This document shows, one piece after another, positions 2,086-24,973 of a stretch of 24,973 bases of DNA. The stretch is from the IMG/VR virus record IMGVR_UViG_2724679239_000007, positions 1 to 24,973 of that record. One strand, given 5' to 3'. The notes beneath the pieces are model-generated. The model made no database searches and was not told where the DNA came from. It was given only the letters and a program-made list of their open reading frames with translations. Source of the DNA: a virus. Its lineage: Duplodnaviria > Heunggongvirae > Uroviricota > Caudoviricetes. The translations under genes and the position numbers were made by a program. Every line of letters starts with the position of its first letter. The stretch's first letter is position 1.

Positions 2086-3324
2086 TCAACCATTTACTAT
2101 TCTCAAACCTTTCTTACCACCGGATCTATTAATTACCCCTTTTCTCGCCTCATCAAAAAAATCTCCTACCCATTGCATCATAATTTTGCGTTGTTCTAAA
2201 TAAGTAGTTCTATTATAAATATCTCTTATTTTATCACCACTTTTATGTGCTAATGCAGCCTCAATAACATCAGGGTTAAAACCCTCCTCATTTAAAAGCG
2301 TACTCCACATCGAACGAAAACCGTGTAACGTTACAATCCCTTTGAACTTGCTGGCAGCAATTGGGGTATTGATAGTATTCTTTCCCATAGGAGCATCTTT
2401 TGTTCTGGAGGAAAAAAATATATAACGCCCTCTTTTTATTTTCTGCATTGTTCTTAGGATTCTAATAGCCTGTGATGAGAGAGGCACAACATGTTCACGA
2501 TGGCATTTCATTTTATGCGCGGGGATAATCCACAAGCCAGAATCAAAATCAATCTCGGACCACTCTGCTTTAATCGCCTCACCTGGCCTGACCATTGTCA
2601 ATATCTGGAATAAAAGTGCATTGTGAGCTATTTGATACTTATGAGGCACACTATCCCACCAACTCAGAAATTCAGGCAATCTTTCAACAGGTAGTGCAGC
2701 TAATGATTTATTTTTCTTTCCTGTGAATGCAGTTTTTATCTTAAGTAATGGATTCGTTTTCAATGCTCCACAATTTACAGCGTAATTCATAATTTCATTT
2801 AATCTTGATATTAATTTTTTTTGCAACGCATTCTTATCGGATACGGCATCCAGAGCATTAATAGCTACTGGCGCTGTAATTTTCTCTATGCTGTACTTAC
2901 CAAAGAAAGGAACAAGATATTTGTATACTTCATATTCGATATTATACAGCGTAGGTTTCCGCAATTCCGATCCCTTTTTAAAAGCGATCCATGCATTAGC
3001 AACAGCTTCAAATGTTTGTAGATTTTTTAGTGACATCTCAATTTTACGATTTTTCTTCTCTGTCACTGGATCAACTCCACGTGCAATCATTCGCCGAAGT
3101 TCATCACGTATTTCCCGTGCTTCCGCGAGTGAGAATTCAGGAAAACGCCCTATCGTGTATGTCTGCCGTTTCTTCGTTATCGGATGGCTATAACGGAAAC
3201 GCCACACTTTCCCACCAGCTTTACTCACATTCAGCAATAAACCGAACCCATCATAAACGGCATAGTCCTTTTCACGTGGTTTCATTCCCTTAACTTCAGT
3301 CACGGTTAATGGCTTTACCGGCAT
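2086..3324 (-). CDS. int: P4-type tyrosine integrase (DUF4102 arm-binding N-terminus)
   Basis: 412 aa; N-terminus LTVTEVKGMKPREKDYAVYDGFGLLLNVSKAGGKVWRFRY is typical of the P4 Int family; catalytic region with HGFRSMWST and a C-terminal IRDIYNRTTY tyrosine motif; AT-rich gene. Confidence 0.85.
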   Translation of the reverse strand: MPVKPLTVTEVKGMKPREKDYAVYDGFGLLLNVSKAGGKVWRFRYSHPITKKRQTYTIGRFPEFSLAEAREIRDELRRMIARGVDPVTEKKNRKIEMSLKNLQTFEAVANAWIAFKKGSELRKPTLYNIEYEVYKYLVPFFGKYSIEKITAPVAINALDAVSDKNALQKKLISRLNEIMNYAVNCGALKTNPLLKIKTAFTGKKNKSLAALPVERLPEFLSWWDSVPHKYQIAHNALLFQILTMVRPGEAIKAEWSEIDFDSGLWIIPAHKMKCHREHVVPLSSQAIRILRTMQKIKRGRYIFFSSRTKDAPMGKNTINTPIAASKFKGIVTLHGFRSMWSTLLNEEGFNPDVIEAALAHKSGDKIRDIYNRTTYLEQRKIMMQWVGDFFDEARKGVINRSGGKKGLRIVNG

Positions 3325-3485: not shown

Positions 3486-4481
3486 CTACATCCAGAATGA
3501 CGCAATACGTGAGCGTCGGGGATCACCATAACGACTGCCATCCGCATTGATGGATTCACCATCCCGCAACCAGACCCCACGTCCGTTCAGCTCACGTTTT
3601 TGTTCAGGCATAATCCGTCCTGAACAGGAAGGACACTGAATATAAGCCGCCTCACTTGCCAGCACGGGATCGGCAATATCACGGAAACCAGCAACCACAT
3701 CGCCGCAGGGCTGAAAAAACTCACCACAGTGTGGACAGGGCCAGTACCAGCGACGGCGATCGCCACGGTTATAGAGCGACAGTATCCCCGTGGTTGGTGG
3801 AGCCTCATGCGGTGAAGTCCGTCGCCATTTCACATCCTTCACATCCCTGCCGGGGGAACTCTCCACCAGCGTCATACCGCTGGACATAAATGTGGTGGTA
3901 CGTTTTGAGGCAAGAGAGAAAGCATCCCCCTCGCCATCAATATCTTCCGGAAAACGGTCATAATCCGTCAGCGCCACGCATTTATAATCTGATGAGGACA
4001 TGATATTGACTGACGGCCAGCCGATTTTCAGGTAGTTGCCAGCAAGGAATGTTCTGTCATAAACGTTGTTGTCATTTTTGTTCGGACTCAGGCGACTGAC
4101 CACTTCCGGGCTGACGCGAAACGTTCTGGCGAGTCGTTTTTTGGAGTGTTCGCGGGCTTTTTCCTCCGTCATCTGAATGATCAGCATATCCGCAGGATCG
4201 CAAATCACGTTGTAAATCACCCAGCCGTCAATCAGGCCGATAGTCTTGCCGGTTCGTGCCGGGCCAACAAATATCACTGCGTCGTATTCACGCGAGGCCA
4301 GGCAGTTCATCGGCTCAATAACATACGGTGCCACCAGCGGATCCCACGGGACTGAGTTCCCTGCCCCCATGGGCACCCGCATATACTGAGCAACGGCATC
4401 AGCAACCCGCATTCGTCTCGGTGCGCGAAGGATATAACCTGAATCGGTTCGTGCTGCCTTTGCGGTTTCCTGATTCAGCAT
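3486..4481 (-). pseudogene. Terminase large subunit (lambda gpA-like), N-terminal ~331 aa only; 3'-truncated
   Basis: Similar to the lambda gpA N-terminal ATPase region (WPCPHCGEFFQ, GVWLRDGESI); the frame ends abruptly at about 3486 where the P4-type int upstream region begins; a full gpA is about 640 aa. Confidence 0.7.
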
Positions 4482-5995: not shown

Positions 5996-6901
5996 CTATA
6001 TTTCCAGACACCTGTTATCACTTAACCCATTACTGGCCTGCTGCCGTAGATATTCCCGTGGCGAGCGATAACCCAGTGCACTATGCGGATGCCATTCGTT
6101 ATAATGCTCGAACGCCTCTGCAAGGTTCTTTGCTGCCGTTAAACCGTCTGGTTTAGGCATGACACTGATGTAGTCACGCTTTATCGTTTTCACGAAGCTC
6201 TCTGCTATGCCGTTACTCTCCGGACTCCGCACCGCCGTGTTCTTCGGTTCAAGCCCCAACATCCGGGCAAACTGGAGTGTTTCATTAGCCCGGTAGCATG
6301 AACCATTATCCGTCAGCCACTCTACTGGAGACGCCGGAAGCTCGTTGCCGAAGCGGCGTTCCACCGCTCCCAGCATTACGTCCTGTACTGTTTCACTGTC
6401 GAAGCCGCCCGTAGTGACTGCCCAGTGCAGTGCCTCACGGTCACAGCAGTCCAGCGCGAACGTGACTCGCAGTTTTTCTCCGTTATCACAGCGGAACTCG
6501 AACCCGTCAGAGCACCATCGTTGATTGCTTTCTTTCACGGCCACTTTGCCTGTATGTGCCCGTTTCGATGGCGGTACAGCGGTTTTTCGCTCAAGCAACA
6601 GCGCATTCTGGCGCATGATCCGGTAAACCCGTTTGGCATTGATCGCAGGCATACCATCAAGTTCGGCCTGTCTGCGAAGCAGCGCCCATACCCGACGATA
6701 ACCATACGTGGGCAGCTCTCCGATAACATGGTGTATACGGAGAAGCACATCCGTATCATCTGAGTGACGGCTGCGGCGACCATCTTTCCAGTCATCGGTT
6801 CGTCTGAGAATTACGTGCAACTGCGCACGCGACACCCGGAGACAACGGCTGACTAAGCTTACTCCCCATCCCCGGGCAATAAGGGCGCGTGCGCTATCCA
6901 C
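5996..6901 (-). CDS. insD: IS2 transposase InsD (OrfB)
   Basis: 301 aa with DDE/rve integrase core; recognised as IS2 OrfB. Confidence 0.9.
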
Positions 6902-9337: not shown

Positions 9338-9412
<75 letters not shown>

Positions 9413-9415
9413 ATA

Positions 9416-9491
<76 letters not shown>

Positions 9492-13045: not shown

Positions 13046-14110
13046 GCAATTGCCTCAGGATAAGTAAGGGGAAATTGCACTATGCAAATGCAGCATCTGA
13101 TGGTTGGCTATCCTAAGTACTACCAAACGGCCGATTATGCGTTGAGGCTTTCAGTGATGGCTGATACAGCAACAATGAGAATGAAGGCTCTGCACTTCTG
13201 GGATAAACACGGTATTTCTGCGGCTTCTGAAGCCTTTGGCGTGTCCTGCCGCACGCTTTACTGGTGGCGTCAGTTACTGAACAAGGAAGGACCTGAGGGG
13301 CTAATCCCGCACAGTAAGGCACCTCTGGTGCGACGAAAAAAACACTGGCATCCCGATGTGCTGAAAGAGATTCGACGCCTCAGGACAGAGCTGCCGAACC
13401 TCGGTAAAGAGCAGATTTTTGTTCGCCTGAAGCCCTGGTGCGAACAGCGCTATCTGGCCTGTCCGAGTGTTTCCACCATCGGCAGAATGATCGCTGCCGC
13501 ACATGATAAAATGCGGATGATACCTGTGCGTCTGGGATCGCGGGGGAAGGCACTGCTTGTCAAAAAGCGGTCTGCCAAACCCCGCAGGCCAAAGCACTAT
13601 CGCCCGGTAAAGACAGGTGAGCTCATTGGGATGGACGCCATTGAGCTCAGAATGGGCGAACTGCGTCGCTATGTCATCACCATGATCGACGAATGCAGCA
13701 ATTACGCGCTGGCGCTGGCTGTGCCGTCACTCAACAGTGATATCGTCAATCACTTCTTCAGCCGCGCAGCCCGGTTGTTCCCGGTCGGTATCAGCCAGAT
13801 AATCACAGATAACGGAAAAGAGTTCCTGGGAAACTTCGACAAAACGCTGCAGGAAGCCGCTATCAAACACCTCTGGACCTATCCCTACACGCCAAAAATG
13901 AACGCTATCTGTGAACGTTTTAACCGGACGTTAAGAGAGCAGTTTATTGAATTTAATGAGATTTTACTCTTTGAAGATCTGGCGCTATTTAATCAGAAGC
14001 TGGCGGAATATCTGGTGCTGTATAACAGCAAAAGGCCCCATAAGGCGCTCGCGCTAATGACACCCGTGGAATATATTTTAAGAGAGAACAAAAATTGCAA
14101 TATGTGGTGG
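13046..14110 (+). mobile_element. Putative insertion sequence carrying a single-ORF DDE (rve) transposase, IS481-like; boundaries approximate
   Basis: Transposase gene plus short inverted ATATTGCAATT motifs at about 13051 and 14098; boundaries and target duplication not resolved by eye. Confidence 0.35.
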
Positions 14111-14278
14111 ACCCATACATCTCCTTGCCTTTCGGCACGTAAGAGGCTAATCTTCAGTTGTCGAGACATAAGACTGGCCTCACTTCGATTTATAGTCGGG
14201 TGGGGCTTTTCTCTATCTGCCTTTTGGTGTTCATGCCTGAGACAGATAGCCTCAAGCACCCGCAGCAATTCTACTTAA
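13082..14278 (+). CDS. DDE-type transposase (N-terminal HTH plus rve integrase core), IS481-family-like
   Basis: HTH region HFWDKHGISAASEAFGVSCRTLYWWRQ; catalytic D (GMDAIE), D (TDNGKEF) and E (ICERFNRTL) with about 58 and 35 aa spacing; the C-terminal tail beyond about residue 340 looks like read-through into flanking DNA. Confidence 0.7.
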   Translation: MQMQHLMVGYPKYYQTADYALRLSVMADTATMRMKALHFWDKHGISAASEAFGVSCRTLYWWRQLLNKEGPEGLIPHSKAPLVRRKKHWHPDVLKEIRRLRTELPNLGKEQIFVRLKPWCEQRYLACPSVSTIGRMIAAAHDKMRMIPVRLGSRGKALLVKKRSAKPRRPKHYRPVKTGELIGMDAIELRMGELRRYVITMIDECSNYALALAVPSLNSDIVNHFFSRAARLFPVGISQIITDNGKEFLGNFDKTLQEAAIKHLWTYPYTPKMNAICERFNRTLREQFIEFNEILLFEDLALFNQKLAEYLVLYNSKRPHKALALMTPVEYILRENKNCNMWWTHTSPCLSARKRLIFSCRDIRLASLRFIVGWGFSLSAFWCSCLRQIASSTRSNST

Positions 14279-18745: not shown

Positions 18746-18822
18746 CGCACCTCCAATATTGAGTTTTCTCAATGCTAATCACTCAAGGAATCTCAAGTCA
18801 AGGGTTATTAAGATATCTAAAT
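18746..18822. promoter_or_regulatory. dicA-dicC divergent promoter/operator region
   Basis: 77-bp spacer with the palindrome TTGAGTTTTCTCAA (18759-18772) and direct repeats CTCAAG; classic immunity-region layout. Confidence 0.5.
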
Positions 18823-19230
18823 ATGAACGAGAAAACTTTAGGTCAACGTATTAGAGAAAGACGTAAGCAGGTAGGCTTAAGTCAAAACGGTTTAAGCAAA
18901 GCTGCTGGCGTATCTGGCTCATCAATTTCATTATGGGAAAGTGACCATACAGCCCCGCGCGGGCAAAATTTGCATCGCCTCGCCGAGGTATTGCAATGTT
19001 CACCAACCTGGATACTGTTTGGCGACGAGGACAAAACACCAGCTCCCCCTGTTTCACTCGATAGTGCCTTAGACTTATCGGAAGATGAGTTAGAGATGCT
19101 GCGTTTGTATCGCGCACTTCCTAAATCAGAGCAACAAGCACAACTCAGCGAACTCCGCGCCCGCGTTGAGAATTTTAATCGCCTGTTCACCGAGCTATTA
19201 GAGGCTCGCAAACGCAACAAGCATCAATAA
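18823..19230 (+). CDS. dicA: DicA-like repressor (XRE-family HTH)
   Basis: 135 aa from MNEKTLGQRIRERRK; HTH plus C-terminal region (VLQCSPTWILFGDEDK...RARVENFNRLFTELLEARKR) closely matching DicA. Confidence 0.8.
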   Translation: MNEKTLGQRIRERRKQVGLSQNGLSKAAGVSGSSISLWESDHTAPRGQNLHRLAEVLQCSPTWILFGDEDKTPAPPVSLDSALDLSEDELEMLRLYRALPKSEQQAQLSELRARVENFNRLFTELLEARKRNKHQ

Positions 19231-19586: not shown

Positions 19587-19952
19587 ATGGAATTTAAAGA
19601 TTTACCGTCTGATGTACAGAAAACAGCAGCTCATACATTGCATTCTGTGCTGCGAGAAATCGGGAAAGATATTGCAAGCGAGCCAGCAAAAGATCTGGCC
19701 CGGAAAATCAAGACCGCTTTCGTTGAGCTTTATAATGTTGGCACTGACTCTGAAACTGTCGAGACCAAGACCGTAAGTTCACCAATATTCTCACTTGAGC
19801 CAGGCGTATTAGCAGGTGAAATATGCACCGAGATTTCCAGCGAACTGCTTCCGGTAATACGAGAAGCAATTTGCCGTCGCGGTTTGGATGGAAGTTACGA
19901 TCATGACGTCCTGCAAGTTCTCAGGACAATGGTGACTTCACTGGGGATTTGA
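19587..19952 (+). CDS. Hypothetical early-left operon protein (about 121 aa from MEFKDLPSD)
   Basis: ORF following ydfA in the same orientation; no family recognised. Confidence 0.35.
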   Translation: MEFKDLPSDVQKTAAHTLHSVLREIGKDIASEPAKDLARKIKTAFVELYNVGTDSETVETKTVSSPIFSLEPGVLAGEICTEISSELLPVIREAICRRGLDGSYDHDVLQVLRTMVTSLGI

Positions 19953-20121
19953 TCCCTGCGTCCTCTAACCTTTTGATATAGCGGTCCTCCAAGAAGCGGT
20001 AAATTTTGTCGAAATCATCTTTCCCCTCTAATTTATTCAGAGGATTACAGGACCCGTAAGTAGCGGCATACATTTCAACCGTTTTATCAAAAATATAAGA
20101 GACAAATTCTTCTTTAGTCAT
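19921..20121 (-). CDS. Hypothetical small protein (66 aa), antisense to the early-left operon, AT-rich
   Basis: MTKEEFVSYIFDKTVEMYAATYGSCNPLNKLEGKDDFDKIYRFLEDRYIKRLEDAGIKSPVKSPLS; AAGGAAA Shine-Dalgarno about 7 nt upstream of ATG; low GC relative to neighbours. Confidence 0.3.
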   Translation of the reverse strand: MTKEEFVSYIFDKTVEMYAATYGSCNPLNKLEGKDDFDKIYRFLEDRYIKRLEDAGIKSPVKSPLS

Positions 20122-20396
20122 ATAGATTTCCTTCTTGGTTATTCGGGATAAGAAGGATACCACCTCGCCTGACGTGGTTAAAAGCAGGCACACAACACGA
20201 AAGCGCACGGCGAAGTTCGTCTCACTGTACGGTGTCGTTAAATTTAATTCGACCGTGCGCTTCCGGTTGTGGCAACCCGCGAAATGGCGCGGCGGTAAGT
20301 ATGGCGGGGTTATTCCTTCCCCGTTGAGGACACCGGGTTGTCAGGTTGACCATACGCTTAAGTGACAACCCCGCTGCAACGCCCTCTGTTATCAAT

Positions 20397-20452
20397 TTTC
20401 TGGTGACGTTTGGCGGTATCAGTTTTACTCCGTGACTGCTCTGCCGCCCTTT
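20397..20452 (+). ncRNA. dicF: DicF small RNA (ftsZ-targeting antisense sRNA)
   Basis: TTTCTGGTGACGTTTGGCGGTATCAGTTTTACTCCGTGACTGCTCTGCCGCCCTTTTT matches my recollection of DicF, including the terminator hairpin GGCGG...CCGCC plus T-run; sits just upstream of dicB. Confidence 0.7.
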
Positions 20453-20623: not shown

Positions 20624-20812
20624 ATGGAAACGTTATTACCAAACGTTAATACGTCTGAAGGTTGTTTTGAAATTGGTGTCAGAATCAGTAACTCTGCATT
20701 TACTGAAGATGCCATTAACAAGAGAAAACACGAACGGGAGTTATTAAATAAAATATGCATTCTTTCAATGCTGGCACGTTTACGCCCGATGCAAAAAGGA
20801 TGCTGGCAATGA
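20624..20812 (+). CDS. dicB: DicB cell division inhibitor
   Basis: 62 aa METLLPNVNTSEGCFEIGV...INKRKHERELLNKICILSMLARLRPMQKGCWQ; closely matches DicB. Confidence 0.8.
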   Translation: METLLPNVNTSEGCFEIGVRISNSAFTEDAINKRKHERELLNKICILSMLARLRPMQKGCWQ

Positions 20813-21012
20813 ATACAGCAATTGCTCTCACTCTGATAGTTTTTCTTAATACGGGCGAGCCTGTTGACCTGGTTATTGACATTTACGGTTCAATGAAAGA
20901 ATGCACGGCTGCCGCAGCGGAACAGAAAACTCCCGGTAACTGTTATCCGGTCGATAAAGTTATTCATATGGACAATAACGAAATCCCGGCAGGACTTAAA
21001 ACAGCACCGTAA
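20809..21012 (+). CDS. ydfD: YdfD-like small membrane/lysis protein (DUF1482-like)
   Basis: 67 aa MNTAIALTLIVFLNTGEPVDLVIDIYGSMKECTAAAAEQKTPGNCYPVDKVIH; start overlaps the dicB stop (ATGA). Confidence 0.55.
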   Translation: MNTAIALTLIVFLNTGEPVDLVIDIYGSMKECTAAAAEQKTPGNCYPVDKVIHMDNNEIPAGLKTAP

Positions 21013-21092: not shown

Positions 21093-23552
21093 ATGAGTAA
21101 AGTCTTTATTTGCGCCGCCATTCCGGACGAACAGGCAACAGCAGAAGGCGCTAAACCTGTGGCCACTGCCATTGAAGCAGGCGACGAACGCCGGGCAAGA
21201 GCCAAATTTAGCTGGTTATTTCTGGAACAATACCCGGAAGCTCAGGACTGTGCTTATAAATTTCTTGTCTGCGAGGATAAACCCGGCATGGCCCGCCCTG
21301 CTCTCGATTCCTGGGATTCCGAATATATGCAGGAAAACCGCTGGAATGAGGAGTCGGCTTCCTTTGTTCCGGTCGCCCCTGAACCGGATACAGAAACTGT
21401 TAACTTTAATCAGTTATCTGAAGACAAGCGGGCTGCTGTCCTTGTCAGATTCGGTACACATGAAAACATCACCGTGGATATGGTCATCAATGCAAGCGGG
21501 CTTCTCGGCGATGACGAGATGACGACTTTTGATGGACACCTCACTGAAGCAATTATCAGGACTAAAGAAATTAACGCCATGTATCCTGAGCGTCAGACTG
21601 AGTACATCAACGACGCCAGACGTGATTTAAAACCAACAGCCAAATGGCCCGACGTTCAGGCGTATTTTCTCGAACGTAAAAAACGCATGGAAAAGGAGCG
21701 CAAAGAAGGTGGAGCATATAATTCCGTCGTCGATCTTGCCCGCGCCAGAGTCAACCGGCAAGGCACTGAAAACTCTGCAGGAAAAACTGGCTCCGTAACT
21801 GCTGTCATTCGTCGCGAATACAGGCAGACATGGAAAACACTGGATGAAGAACTGGCCTACGCTCTCTGGCCTGGTGATGTGGATGCCGGAAACATTGACG
21901 GCAGCATCCATCGCTGGGCAAAAAATGAAGTTATCGACAACGACCGCGAAGACTGGAAGCGTATCTCGGCATCAATGCGCAAACAGCCTGATGCCCTTCG
22001 CTACGACCGCCAGACTATTTTTGGCCTTGTCCGTGAACGTCCGATCGACATTCACAAAGACCCTGTGGCACTGAACAAATACATTACTGAATACCTGACG
22101 ACAAAAGGCGTGTTTGAAGATGAAGAAACGGATCAGAGTCCTGCTGATGTTCTCCGGTCGTCAGCAACACAAACTGATGCAGTGGAAACAGAAGTATCTG
22201 GCACCCAAAAAAATGAAAGCGCACTGGAAGCTGAACCATCTGTAGAGCGTGAAGGACCGTTCTACTTCCTCTTTACCGATAAGGACGGCGAAAAATACGG
22301 TCGCGCAAACAAACTGTCTGGTCTGAATAAGGCGCTGGCTGCCGGGGCTACTGAAATCACCAAAGAAGAATACGTCGCCCGAAAAAATGGCACATACACA
22401 GGCTTACCGCAAAATACCAATGCCGCACAAAACTCTGAACAACCAGAGCCGGTAAAAGTTAACACGGTCGAAACAAATAAAAAAATGGAGACAGAAAATC
22501 TGCCTGATGCCGACAAAGTGCTTACTGCATCACGTGGTGAATTTGTTGAAGGAATTAGCGACCCGAATGATCCGAAGTGGGTTGAGGGGATCCAGACTCG
22601 CGATTCTGTGTACCAGAATCAGCAAGAAATGGAACAGAACGACCAGAAAGCGGAACAAAACAGCCCGGATGCGCAACAAAACGGGCCAGAAGTGCAACAG
22701 TCAGAGCCAACAGCACAACAGGAGACTGAAAAAAGCTGCAATACTTGCGGCCGGGCTGGCGGTGGAAAATGTCCGGACTGCGGGCCTGTTATGGGTAACA
22801 CAACATATCAGGAAACATTCGATGAAGAAAATCTGGCTGAAAAAGATTCGGAGAAAATGGAAAGCACTGCGCATTCTCGTAAGGAGAGCGCTGGTGACGC
22901 TCAGCATGGCAATAGCAGTGATGAAACTGGCGAGACGGCAAATCCCCCAATTCCGGTGAACAGTCATCATAAATACATATCCACCAGCAACAGAATGTGG
23001 ACTCATATGATGATCGACCTGGAAACCATGGGAAAAAATCCTGATGCTGCAGTTATCTCAATAGGTGCAATATTTTTCGATCCGCAAACCGGAGATATTG
23101 GGCCAGAATTCAGTAAGACCATCGATCTGGATACTGCTGGCGGTGTCATTGACAGGGACACCGTTAAGTGGTGGCTGAAGCAATCGCGCGAAGCGCAGTC
23201 TGCCATTCTGGCTGATGAAATCCCGTTAGATGATGCACTGTTGCAATTACGGGAATTTATCGACGAAAACTCTGGTGAGTTTTTTGTTCAGGTCTGGGGC
23301 AACGGAACCAGTTTCGACAACGTAATTTTACGCCGTTCATACGAACGACAGGGAATCCCCTGCCCGTGGCACTACTGCAATGATCGCGATGTTCGCACGA
23401 TCGTTGAACTGGGAGGAGCCATGGACTTCGATGCCAGAACGGCTATTCCATTCGAAGGCGAGCGCCACAATGCACTTGATGACGCCCGTTACCAGGCAAA
23501 ATACGTTTCAGCTATCTGGCAAAAACTGCTCCCAAGTCAGGCTGATTTTTAA
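21093..23552 (+). CDS. Large multi-domain protein with C-terminal DEDDh 3'-5' exonuclease domain (intact YdfE-like exonuclease)
   Basis: 819 aa; N-terminal domain of about 330 aa, acidic Gln/Glu-rich low-complexity linker, zinc-ribbon CNTCGRAGGGKCPDCG, C-terminal exonuclease motifs MIDLETMG (Exo I), WGNGTSFDNV (Exo II), HNALDDARYQAKY (Exo III). Confidence 0.6.
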   Translation: MSKVFICAAIPDEQATAEGAKPVATAIEAGDERRARAKFSWLFLEQYPEAQDCAYKFLVCEDKPGMARPALDSWDSEYMQENRWNEESASFVPVAPEPDTETVNFNQLSEDKRAAVLVRFGTHENITVDMVINASGLLGDDEMTTFDGHLTEAIIRTKEINAMYPERQTEYINDARRDLKPTAKWPDVQAYFLERKKRMEKERKEGGAYNSVVDLARARVNRQGTENSAGKTGSVTAVIRREYRQTWKTLDEELAYALWPGDVDAGNIDGSIHRWAKNEVIDNDREDWKRISASMRKQPDALRYDRQTIFGLVRERPIDIHKDPVALNKYITEYLTTKGVFEDEETDQSPADVLRSSATQTDAVETEVSGTQKNESALEAEPSVEREGPFYFLFTDKDGEKYGRANKLSGLNKALAAGATEITKEEYVARKNGTYTGLPQNTNAAQNSEQPEPVKVNTVETNKKMETENLPDADKVLTASRGEFVEGISDPNDPKWVEGIQTRDSVYQNQQEMEQNDQKAEQNSPDAQQNGPEVQQSEPTAQQETEKSCNTCGRAGGGKCPDCGPVMGNTTYQETFDEENLAEKDSEKMESTAHSRKESAGDAQHGNSSDETGETANPPIPVNSHHKYISTSNRMWTHMMIDLETMGKNPDAAVISIGAIFFDPQTGDIGPEFSKTIDLDTAGGVIDRDTVKWWLKQSREAQSAILADEIPLDDALLQLREFIDENSGEFFVQVWGNGTSFDNVILRRSYERQGIPCPWHYCNDRDVRTIVELGGAMDFDARTAIPFEGERHNALDDARYQAKYVSAIWQKLLPSQADF

Positions 23553-23616: not shown

Positions 23617-23865
23617 ATGGCAAGACTTATTCTGCTCACTGAGTGGGCAAAAGAGGAATTCAGTGAACCGGTCCCTACTCCGGGTACATTAAGTAAATAC
23701 GCTAAAGCCGGAATGATATTTCCCCTCCCCAAAAAAGTTGGAAGACACTGGCGAGTGGATCCACGGGCTCGTTTTGTCGGAATGGTAAGCAAGCCTGAGG
23801 TGATCGCCACAGATCACCCGGCTTTAAAGAGGATACTGGAAGATGGCTCGCCCTCGAAAATATAA
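23617..23865 (+). CDS. xis: Excisionase (Xis-like)
   Basis: 82 aa; winged-helix excisionase-like core (LTEWAKEEF...AGMIFPLPKKVGRHWRV); overlaps the int start as in lambda xis-int. Confidence 0.55.
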   Translation: MARLILLTEWAKEEFSEPVPTPGTLSKYAKAGMIFPLPKKVGRHWRVDPRARFVGMVSKPEVIATDHPALKRILEDGSPSKI

Positions 23866-24973
23866 AACCGATGTTCCGGGGTTATCTCCGTATTTTGACA
23901 AAAGAAATAACAAAGTTTACTGGCGGTACAGGCATCCCATCACAGGCAAAAATCACGGACTCGGCAGTATTGACCAGAAACTGGCGGAAACCATTGCAGC
24001 AGAAGCAAACAGCCGCCTTGCCAGACAACAAATGGAACAAATGTTCAGTCTGCAGGAAAAAATTATTAGTGATACCGGCGGTTCATCAACCGTTTCAATT
24101 TTTCTGAATAGTTACAGAAAAATTCAACAGGAAAGATATGAAAACGGAGAGATCAAACTCAACACGCTAAAACAGAAAGCGGCCCCTCTCAGAGTGTTTG
24201 ATGAACGTTTTGGAGCCAGGCAATTAGATGCCATAACCGTAAAAGATATTGTATCGGTGTTGGAAGAATACAAAGCAAGAGGACATAACAGAATGGGACA
24301 AATTTTCAGGAAAGTACTGATCGATGTTTTCCGGGAAGCTCAACAAACAGGCGATGTCCCGCCAGGGTTTAATCCGGCAGAATCGGCAAAAAAACCACAG
24401 GTACGGGTATCAAGGCAACGACTGACCTTTGATGAGTGGATGATGATTTATAACGCAGCGGAAAAAGAGGGTTACTTTTTACAGCGTGGCATGTTGCTTG
24501 CGCTGATGACAGGGCAGCGTCTTTCGGATATTAGCAAAATGCAGTTTTCGGATATCCGGGATGGCTATCTTCATGTTGAACAGCAAAAAACGGGAGCCCG
24601 AATTGCTATCCCTCTGGCTCTGCGTTGCGATAAATTAAATCTTACCCTGGATGATGTGGTGTCATCCTGTCGCGATTGCGTTCTTAGTCCGTGGTTATTG
24701 CACCACCATCACGCGAAAGGGACAGCTAAGCGCGGCGGAATGGTTAAACCAGCAACGTTAACTGTTGCATTTAAAAAAGCCCGGGATTCTGTAGATTACA
24801 ACTGGTGTGCCAATGGTACCCCACCCTCTTTCCATGAGCAGAGATCTTTATCAGAACGATTGTTCAGAGAACAGGGAATTGACACCAAAACTTTGCTGGG
24901 CCATTCGAATCAAAAAATGACCGATATTTACAACGACGCACGCGGTAAGGAGTGGAAAAAACTGGTCGTTTGA
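23843..24973 (+). CDS. int: Lambda-family tyrosine integrase (prophage int at the element edge)
   Basis: 376 aa; C-terminal catalytic region HEQRSLSERLF and LLGHSNQKMTDIYNDARGKEWKKLVV parallels lambda Int (HELRSLSARLY, LLGHKSDTMASQYRDDRGREW); stop codon at the window end. Confidence 0.85.
   Translation: MARPRKYKTDVPGLSPYFDKRNNKVYWRYRHPITGKNHGLGSIDQKLAETIAAEANSRLARQQMEQMFSLQEKIISDTGGSSTVSIFLNSYRKIQQERYENGEIKLNTLKQKAAPLRVFDERFGARQLDAITVKDIVSVLEEYKARGHNRMGQIFRKVLIDVFREAQQTGDVPPGFNPAESAKKPQVRVSRQRLTFDEWMMIYNAAEKEGYFLQRGMLLALMTGQRLSDISKMQFSDIRDGYLHVEQQKTGARIAIPLALRCDKLNLTLDDVVSSCRDCVLSPWLLHHHHAKGTAKRGGMVKPATLTVAFKKARDSVDYNWCANGTPPSFHEQRSLSERLFREQGIDTKTLLGHSNQKMTDIYNDARGKEWKKLVV

Follow-up and report, generated by a model that had tools for sequence, protein, structure and literature searches.

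Analysis of a 24,973-nucleotide stretch of viral DNA (Caudoviricetes; IMG/VR virus record IMGVR_UViG_2724679239_000007, positions 1 to 24,973; hereafter the window) reveals an open reading frame (ORF) for an 819-residue protein, the architecture of which is, close to certainly, modular: a body of the RecE type carries at its C-terminus a DEDDh exonuclease head resembling DexA of phage T4, and the whole represents the intact form of ydfE, a gene of the Qin prophage of Escherichia coli K-12. We hold further, with moderate confidence, that the protein is a DNA 3′–5′ exonuclease of phage DNA-end metabolism. The gene and its recognizable parts are as follows, together with the evidence by which they were delineated.

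21093–23552, plus strand: whole coding sequence (CDS) of the full-length YdfE-family exonuclease; ATG start, 819 amino acids and a stop codon (ORF listing)
21093–21755, plus strand: YdfE_N-type domain, residues 1–221, consisting of a small α/β subdomain (~1–100) and a helical subdomain (~105–221)
21828–22112, plus strand: helical domain, residues 246–340, in common with RecE (~278–350) and designated YdfE_C (BLASTP, phmmer and AlphaFold2 (AF2))
22254–22388, plus strand: small β-hairpin/helix domain, residues 388–432, with disordered linkers on either side (AF2 and phmmer)
22503–22622, plus strand: motif ASRGEFVxGISDPNDPKWVxGIQTRD, residues 471–510, in common with RecE (alignment with K-12 RecE; PRK09709)
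22614–22718, plus strand: five degenerate heptads QNxxxx[E/Q], residues 508–542, equivalent to 21-nucleotide DNA repeats (Tandem Repeats Finder and in-frame reading)
22737–22781, plus strand: CxxC-x7-CxxC element with Cys549, Cys552, Cys560 and Cys563, residues 549–563, a putative minimal zinc ribbon or knuckle
22782–23000, plus strand: acidic low-complexity linker, residues 564–636 (RecE alignment and composition)
23001–23549, plus strand: DEDDh (DnaQ-like) 3′–5′ exonuclease domain of the Rv2179c/DexA family, residues 637–819 (PF16473 and DexA alignment)

The reading frame is preceded, about 9 nucleotides 5′ of its start, by the Shine–Dalgarno sequence GAGG, and the match to PHROG 2082 ("exonuclease") spans the protein from residue 1 to residue 819. 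An identical 819-residue protein is present in assembly GCA_001515005.1, for which YdfE_N, YdfE_C and Rv2179c-like domains have been precomputed, and a single CDS of 823 residues is annotated for each of two orthologues, one from E. coli DCE7 and one from phage HannyBb, the genome of which is complete. The concern, raised with the original prediction, that the ORF might be an artefactual fusion of two genes is thus met by one unbroken frame of 819 codons, found as the same single CDS in both orthologues. In K-12, ydfE (b1577) is a pseudogene overlapped by IS2E, and its product is 67% identical to residues 1–257 of the present protein; the truncation of this copy by insertion sequence (IS) 2, put forward with the original prediction, agrees with the annotation of a pseudogene interrupted by IS2E. 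Since the K-12 gene is such an IS2-truncated copy, the 819-residue ORF displays the architecture of full-length ydfE.

The relationship of the body (residues 1–636) to RecE is extensive. By BLASTP against K-12 RecE, residues 262–620 align with RecE 278–591 (E 4e-50), the identity amounting to 85% at residues 471–510, to 70% in the four-Cys element and to less than 40% elsewhere. DETGE(T/V)A(N/D)P marks the end of the homology, immediately ahead of the crystallised nuclease domain of RecE; RecE 606–866, the PD-(D/E)XK nuclease, was left unaligned by BLASTP, and no Pfam DUF3799 or PDDEXK match occurs in the 819-residue protein. The NCBIfam equivalog model of RecE (NF007259, PRK09709) matches residues 452–621 with 247 bits, far below its cutoff of 1269. 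At the N-terminus, the precomputed matches from a newer Pfam release are YdfE_N (PF27430) and YdfE_C (PF27432). An AF2 model of residues 1–470 (from a 59-sequence alignment; mean predicted local distance difference test score (pLDDT), 83.6) contains three ordered units, residues 1–221, 246–340 and 388–432, with disordered linkers between them. The second of these units, with a pLDDT of 94–98, is conserved more widely than any other module of the scaffold, being found in nearly all long homologues on the phmmer map; the third, with a pLDDT above 90 and flanks below 50, occurs in many of them. The ratio of nonsynonymous to synonymous substitution rates (dN/dS), computed against the E. coli DCE7 and phage HannyBb orthologues, is 0.12–0.14 for residues 246–340, 0.02–0.05 for residues 388–432, 0.06–0.11 for residues 471–510 and about 0.31 for residues 511–636. 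As judged from these alignments, the protein is a relative of RecE in all but its nuclease head, the homologous body including the four-Cys element. The original prediction that it does not look like a RecE-type enzyme therefore holds for the catalytic domain, which is DEDDh rather than PD-(D/E)XK, and fails for the body.

Between the GISDPNDPKWV motif and the acidic linker lie the heptad repeat and the four-Cys element. The heptads read, in order, QNQQEME, QNDQKAE, QNSPDAQ, QNGPEVQ and QSEPTAQ; Tandem Repeats Finder reports positions 22633–22699 with a period of 21, 3.2 copies and 74% matches, and adjoining 21-nucleotide units are alike at 12–16 of their 21 bases. The number of heptads differs among relatives, K-12 RecE being shorter by exactly two. 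A linker rich in Gln and Glu, built from degenerate QQN/EQN repeats, had been placed at about residues 500–560 (about 22600–22740); the repeat is real, although narrower than proposed. The four cysteines that follow, likewise noticed in advance, form two CxxC pairs, and all four are retained by K-12 RecE and by both orthologues (E. coli DCE7 and phage HannyBb). The module map shows this element in the closest relatives and in K-12 RecE only, and it is absent from most of the distant family members. The only Pfam match bearing on a zinc ribbon is a weak one, to DUF2321 (E 0.11).

The C-terminal head belongs to the DEDDh exonucleases. Pfam PF16473 (Rv2179c-like) matches residues 637–809 over its entire length (model positions 1–177 of 177) with an E-value of 1.2e-65 and 221 bits against a cutoff of 27, and a weak RNase_T match covers the same stretch. 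When T4 DexA, as translated from the T4 record, and eight related heads were aligned with the head, the catalytic pentad D642, E644, D742, H792 and D797 coincided with D7, E9, D119, H186 and D191 of DexA. The catalytic residues of the three motifs, DxE in Exo I, D in Exo II and Hx4D in Exo III, are invariant in a set of eight aligned heads. The Exo motifs expected from the sequence at the outset are thus borne out, a failure to align with the DEDD family having been the alternative outcome. T4 DexA (PDB 8kel) is the only significant relative of solved structure, retrieved with an E-value of 8e-7 by the single sequence and 4e-17 by a profile of the head; the same profile retrieved, up to an E-value of 1, no solved chain described as an exoribonuclease. 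The dN/dS of the head is 0.12. A metal-dependent 3′–5′ exonuclease activity on DNA is predicted for the head. DNA is favoured as the substrate because DexA is the nearest solved relative, because no solved chain described as an exoribonuclease was retrieved up to that E-value, and because the alternative heads described below, a RecE nuclease and a Rad52-type domain, are DNA-acting.

Two further observations concern heads of this type. In the head (~568–750) of the 752-residue homologue P0208, the Exo I Glu is replaced by Lys (DLKTMG) and the Exo II Asp by Ala (SFANV); this head is probably a catalytically dead variant kept on the scaffold. An acidic stretch followed by Phe (…LPSQADF, 23526–23549) forms the C-terminus of the 819-residue protein and of its closest relatives, and more distant heads end in …LTAN; it is pure speculation that the QADF tail loosely resembles the acidic, aromatic C-terminal tips that serve in protein docking.

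Related proteins carry other heads on the same scaffold. An exhaustive HMMER search with residues 1–470 yielded 186 cluster representatives among 1.84 billion proteins, so that the scaffold family is a narrow one. Mapping of the modules on 69 long homologues by phmmer and Pfam distinguished two alternative N-terminal modules, one of YdfE type and one of RecE type, and several C-termini: a DEDDh head in nine homologues in addition to the query, a RecE PD-(D/E)XK nuclease in 13 (14 by Pfam DUF3799), a third tail in about 19, and a distinct fourth tail (PHROG 26058). All four combinations of N-terminal module and nuclease type occur. In P0131 (L011 768–4354), for example, a YdfE_N-type N-terminus is combined with a PD-(D/E)XK head, and the N-terminal modules and the heads therefore assort independently. 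In P0122 (527 residues), YdfE_N and YdfE_C are joined directly to a DEDDh head with neither linker nor Cys element.

The third tail bears the signature KKSLTDAxKKALSxLGFSADVxLG. Its profile retrieves stand-alone Pseudomonas proteins of about 243 residues (E ~1e-65), several of which are named Rad52/Rad22 by NCBI, and four of the five such relatives that were scanned pass the cutoff of Pfam Rad52_Rad22 (PF04098). An AF2 model of the tail gave nothing informative in fold searches, and its assignment as a putative Rad52/Rad22-type annealase domain is drawn from the sequence matches. The Rad52-headed fusions comprise P0184 (L008 5001–7205) and about 18 other cluster representatives; their label in PHROGs, "exonuclease" (phrog_2489 and phrog_7838), is apparently a mis-annotation. 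The "RecE-2" proteins of Zheng et al., described as relatives of RecE that have no nuclease domain (PMC12315714), are probably the same fusions. For the fourth tail (P0126, L014 4001–6109; ending …DDLPAxAxxLAxxV…), no Pfam or PDB match was found, nor any adjoining nuclease or annealase gene.

The genes following these fusions differ with the head. In the Rac prophage of K-12, recT directly follows recE with its PD-(D/E)XK head, and the PD-(D/E)XK-headed P0131 overlaps, stop codon with start codon, a gene of the RecT family (PF03837, E 2e-36). Next after the Rad52-headed P0184 comes a Sipho_Gp157 gene, with the excisionase and integrase genes (xis-int) beyond it. The DEDDh-headed genes lead straight into xis and/or int at five independent loci on seven contigs, namely, the window, E. 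coli DCE7, phage HannyBb, P0139 (two contigs) and P0222 (two contigs). In phage mEp235, a stand-alone protein homologous to the head (53% identity) is encoded within the Erf-SSB-Exo-Abc2 recombination module (SSB, single-stranded DNA-binding protein), and DnaQ-like nucleases have been reported in the Rec modules of lambdoid phages (PMC12315714).

In the window, the plus strand from 18.7 kb to the end is organised in the manner typical of an early-left operon in a Qin/Rac-like lambdoid prophage, in which the 819-residue gene is flanked by the following features.

18772–19230, plus strand: helix-turn-helix repressor
Between the repressor and DicF, in the early-left operon: a DUF1391 (ydfA-like) gene, then a PHROG 33007 gene
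20398–20449, plus strand: small RNA DicF (Rfam, 76.7 bits)
20624–20812, plus strand: dicB (Pfam DicB)
20809–21012, plus strand: ydfD-like DUF1482 gene (Pfam DUF1482)
23617–23865, plus strand: excisionase (PHROG 629)
23843–24973, plus strand: tyrosine integrase (PHROG 7244/1)

The gene order dicF-dicB-ydfD-ydfE is the same as in K-12 Qin. The position upstream of xis-int given in the original prediction is correct, the 819-residue gene being the last of the early-left operon before xis (23617) and int (23843), and no annealase gene lies between it and xis-int. The K-12 dicB promoter is reported to drive ydfD-ydfE and to be under repression by DicA (PMC11430063). Because promoter-like and terminator-like sites around the 819-residue gene are no commoner than in shuffled sequence, co-transcription in the window is taken from the gene layout. 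An antisense ORF (19921–20208, minus strand; PHROG 34441) occurs within this otherwise plus-strand operon, after the ydfA-like genes and before DicF.

Outside this operon, the prophage looks defective. ORFs for IS-type transposases with rve domains are found at 5996–6901 (minus strand) and 13082–14278 (plus strand), and the ORF for the terminase large subunit (3486–4481, minus strand) encodes only 331 residues, the ATPase domain alone, and adjoins a second tyrosine integrase (2086–3324, minus strand). Rfam also reports a sok antitoxin RNA at 14114–14261 (minus strand), the coordinates of which overlap the 3′ end of the long transposase ORF, and two tRNA genes at 9341–9491 (minus strand).

The family is widespread and under constraint. 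Of 5426 complete E. coli genomes, 4142 contain a match to the gene, and in 2182 complete E. coli genomes the match covers at least 80% of it; the best E. coli DNA match is no more than 89% identical, and the closest matches of the N-terminal part, at 98% identity, are named Escherichia albertii. The prophage probably comes from E. albertii. The gene is under purifying selection, with a dN/dS of 0.23–0.26 overall, 0.02–0.14 in the individual folded domains and 0.3–0.57 in the linkers. Synonymous divergence from the E. coli DCE7 orthologue (L001 12001–14469) ranges by segment from 0.02 (residues 1–221) to 1.05 (residues 471–510), which points to recombination breakpoints within the gene and a mosaic history. 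The family itself is already catalogued, in PHROG 2082, in the newer Pfam release and under the RefSeq names "exonuclease" and "3′-5′ exonuclease", and the copy in the window is an ordinary member of this common prophage family; what gives it interest is the architecture and the pattern across relatives rather than the locus itself.

Referring to these features, we propose that the 819-residue protein would be produced upon derepression of the early-left (dicB-type) operon and that its head would act as a metal-dependent 3′–5′ exonuclease on DNA 3′ ends, whether tails, flaps or duplex ends, the scaffold taking the head to the same place or partner as is used by the RecE-type and Rad52-headed relatives. 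The protein would then take part in the processing of phage DNA ends during recombination-dependent replication or repair, and would do so with no cognate annealase of its own. Trimming of 3′ tails or flaps and end resection are plausible jobs; alternatively, it may limit the processing of 3′ ends by the host. Several considerations weigh against this proposal. Nucleases of 3′–5′ polarity usually inhibit recombination (PMC12315714), as a 3′–5′ exonuclease would destroy the 3′ tails needed by annealases and RecA, and neither the early-left operon nor about 21 other scanned ORFs of the window yielded a recognisable annealase gene. Sporadic int-proximal genes of the DnaQ type, a description that the 819-residue gene fits, are not counted as members of the Rec module (PMC12315714). 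The function of the scaffold is not known even for RecE (PMC11611040). The Pfam family of the head, PF16473, is named after an exoribonuclease, and an intact gene in a defective-looking prophage would also fit a host-beneficial role. Finally, the searchable literature yielded no biochemical or genetic data on YdfE and no study of the protein or its architecture.

The interchangeability of the heads invites a wider, though tentative and rather doubtful, interpretation: that the YdfE/RecE body is a general adaptor of lambdoid phages delivering exchangeable DNA-end effectors to one common target, and that the DEDDh form, rather than partnering a recombinase, is an annealase-independent eraser of 3′ ends that controls what becomes of 3′ single-stranded DNA. 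The effectors seen on the body are a 5′–3′ nuclease, a 3′–5′ nuclease, a Rad52-type annealase and at least one further tail; candidates for the common target are a DNA end, the replisome and a host protein. Such an eraser might block the host processing of ends by RecA or RecBCD-Chi, or might remove 3′-ended DNA that triggers defences of the host. If true, this would constitute a previously undescribed functional class, present in about three-quarters of E. coli genomes.

A different role, which we regard as improbable though worth weighing, is that of a prophage nuclease for defence or superinfection exclusion, of the kind termed HREX, in which the DexA-like head would degrade incoming phage DNA (e.g., DNA with modified cytosines) and spare that of the host. 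An E. coli homologue of DexA, EcD (HAK9828821.1), is reported to digest T4 DNA and to protect cells against T4 (PMC12153337), and this role is also favoured by the survival of an intact gene under purifying selection within an otherwise degraded-looking prophage with IS elements and a truncated terminase, and by the abundance of matches in E. coli genomes. However, EcD, by its position numbering, appears to be a stand-alone head lacking the 636-residue scaffold, a scaffold that the present protein has in common with RecE-RecT and Rad52-type recombination proteins. The residues of DexA proposed to recognise 5-hydroxymethylcytosine, W152 and D169 (PMC12153337), align with C762 and A781, the alignment of the latter lying in a gapped region and being less certain, and the W152 site is occupied by W, Y, R or V in the heads of homologues. 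In addition, DexA D90, the tetramer-forming Asp whose loss is said to make EcD safe for the host (PMC12153337), is retained as D714, and DexA S87 corresponds to P711. The location argues in the same direction, as the gene belongs to a repressor-controlled lytic operon rather than to a lysogen-expressed moron position (PMC11430063). A link to the signalling molecules of defence systems, suggested with the original prediction, found no support, the sole PADLOC match being to a weak, generic DEDDh model (E 5e-4).

Less probable still is a function in RNA or nucleotide metabolism, in which an Rv2179c-like exonuclease would trim or degrade RNAs of the operon or the host, or else oligonucleotides that are short or cyclic, perhaps to counter defence systems. 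The DEDDh enzymes do include RNases, such as RNase T and Orn, the best Pfam family of the head is named for the exoribonuclease Rv2179c of Mycobacterium tuberculosis, and homologues are sometimes labelled "3′-5′ exoribonuclease" in RefSeq and phage records. Nevertheless, the head profile leads to the DNA exonuclease DexA and, up to an E-value of 1, to no solved chain described as an exoribonuclease, the alternative heads on the scaffold (RecE nuclease and Rad52 annealase) are DNA enzymes, and stand-alone homologues of the head lie between SSB and Abc2 in a DNA recombination module; DicF, moreover, is still annotated in K-12, where ydfE is broken. That the gene has become a relic with no function, or that two genes were fused in assembly or annotation, is highly improbable, since, for all the IS elements, the truncated terminase and the K-12 pseudogene, the frame of 819 codons is uninterrupted, the same single CDS recurs in E. 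coli and phage HannyBb, the 2182 genomes carry it nearly full-length, dN/dS is low both overall and within every folded domain, and none of the five catalytic residues has been lost.

The proposed DNA 3′–5′ exonuclease with a RecE-type body is worth comparing with the systems to which its parts are related. Its head shares the Pfam family PF16473 with the 3′–5′ exoribonuclease Rv2179c, although the relationship is remote; Rv2179c acts on RNA and is encoded in a chromosomal, non-phage context. The stand-alone DnaQ-like exonucleases of lambdoid phages (epsilon34 and mEp235 gp30; PMC12315714) are likewise encoded in the early-left operon and are 53% identical to the head. These enzymes, however, lack the scaffold and are contiguous with genes for an annealase and SSB, whereas the present head is attached to a RecE-like body and has neither gene nearby. 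T4 DexA (PDB 8KEL/8KEN), which belongs to the same DEDDh subfamily with its catalytic D, E, D, H and D aligned, is a DNA 3′–5′ exonuclease with a role in intron homing driven by double-strand breaks. DexA and EcD ("HREX"; PMC12153337) are small stand-alone proteins, in contrast to the present domain, which forms the C-terminal head of an 819-residue protein and is missing the insertions of DexA. A predicted 3′–5′ exonuclease that is abundant in prophages of E. coli and E. albertii is also flagged, and it could affect phage recombination, prophage–host DNA metabolism or phage exclusion.

The K-12 YdfE protein of Qin occupies the orthologous position, after dicF-dicB-ydfD, and has the same Pfam YdfE_N and YdfE_C domains, but it is cut by IS2E after about 256 homologous residues and thus has none of the linker, the Cys element and the nuclease. 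RecE (exonuclease VIII) of the K-12 Rac prophage may be compared in the same way. Both genes are large and lie late in the early-left operon near xis-int, and the two proteins have in common the helical domain, the GISDPNDPKWV motif, the heptads, the four-Cys element and the acidic linker. They differ at both ends: the first ~220 residues are of the YdfE_N type here and of the RecE N-terminal type in RecE, and the PD-(D/E)XK 5′–3′ nuclease of RecE (~606–866) is replaced by an unrelated DEDDh fold of opposite polarity. They also differ in their neighbours, as recT follows recE in Rac, whereas no recT follows the 819-residue gene. It appears not to have been stated before that the body of RecE occurs with a head of opposite polarity, nor that the same body also occurs with a Rad52-type annealase and that adjacency to recT tracks the 5′–3′ head alone. 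RecE-RecT is a workhorse of recombineering, and yet the RecE body of about 600 residues has no known function, one lead being that full-length RecE boosts linear–linear recombination (PMC11611040). The natural combination of this one body with nucleases of opposite polarity or with an annealase, with recT as a neighbour of the 5′–3′ version only, now provides a handle on what the body does.

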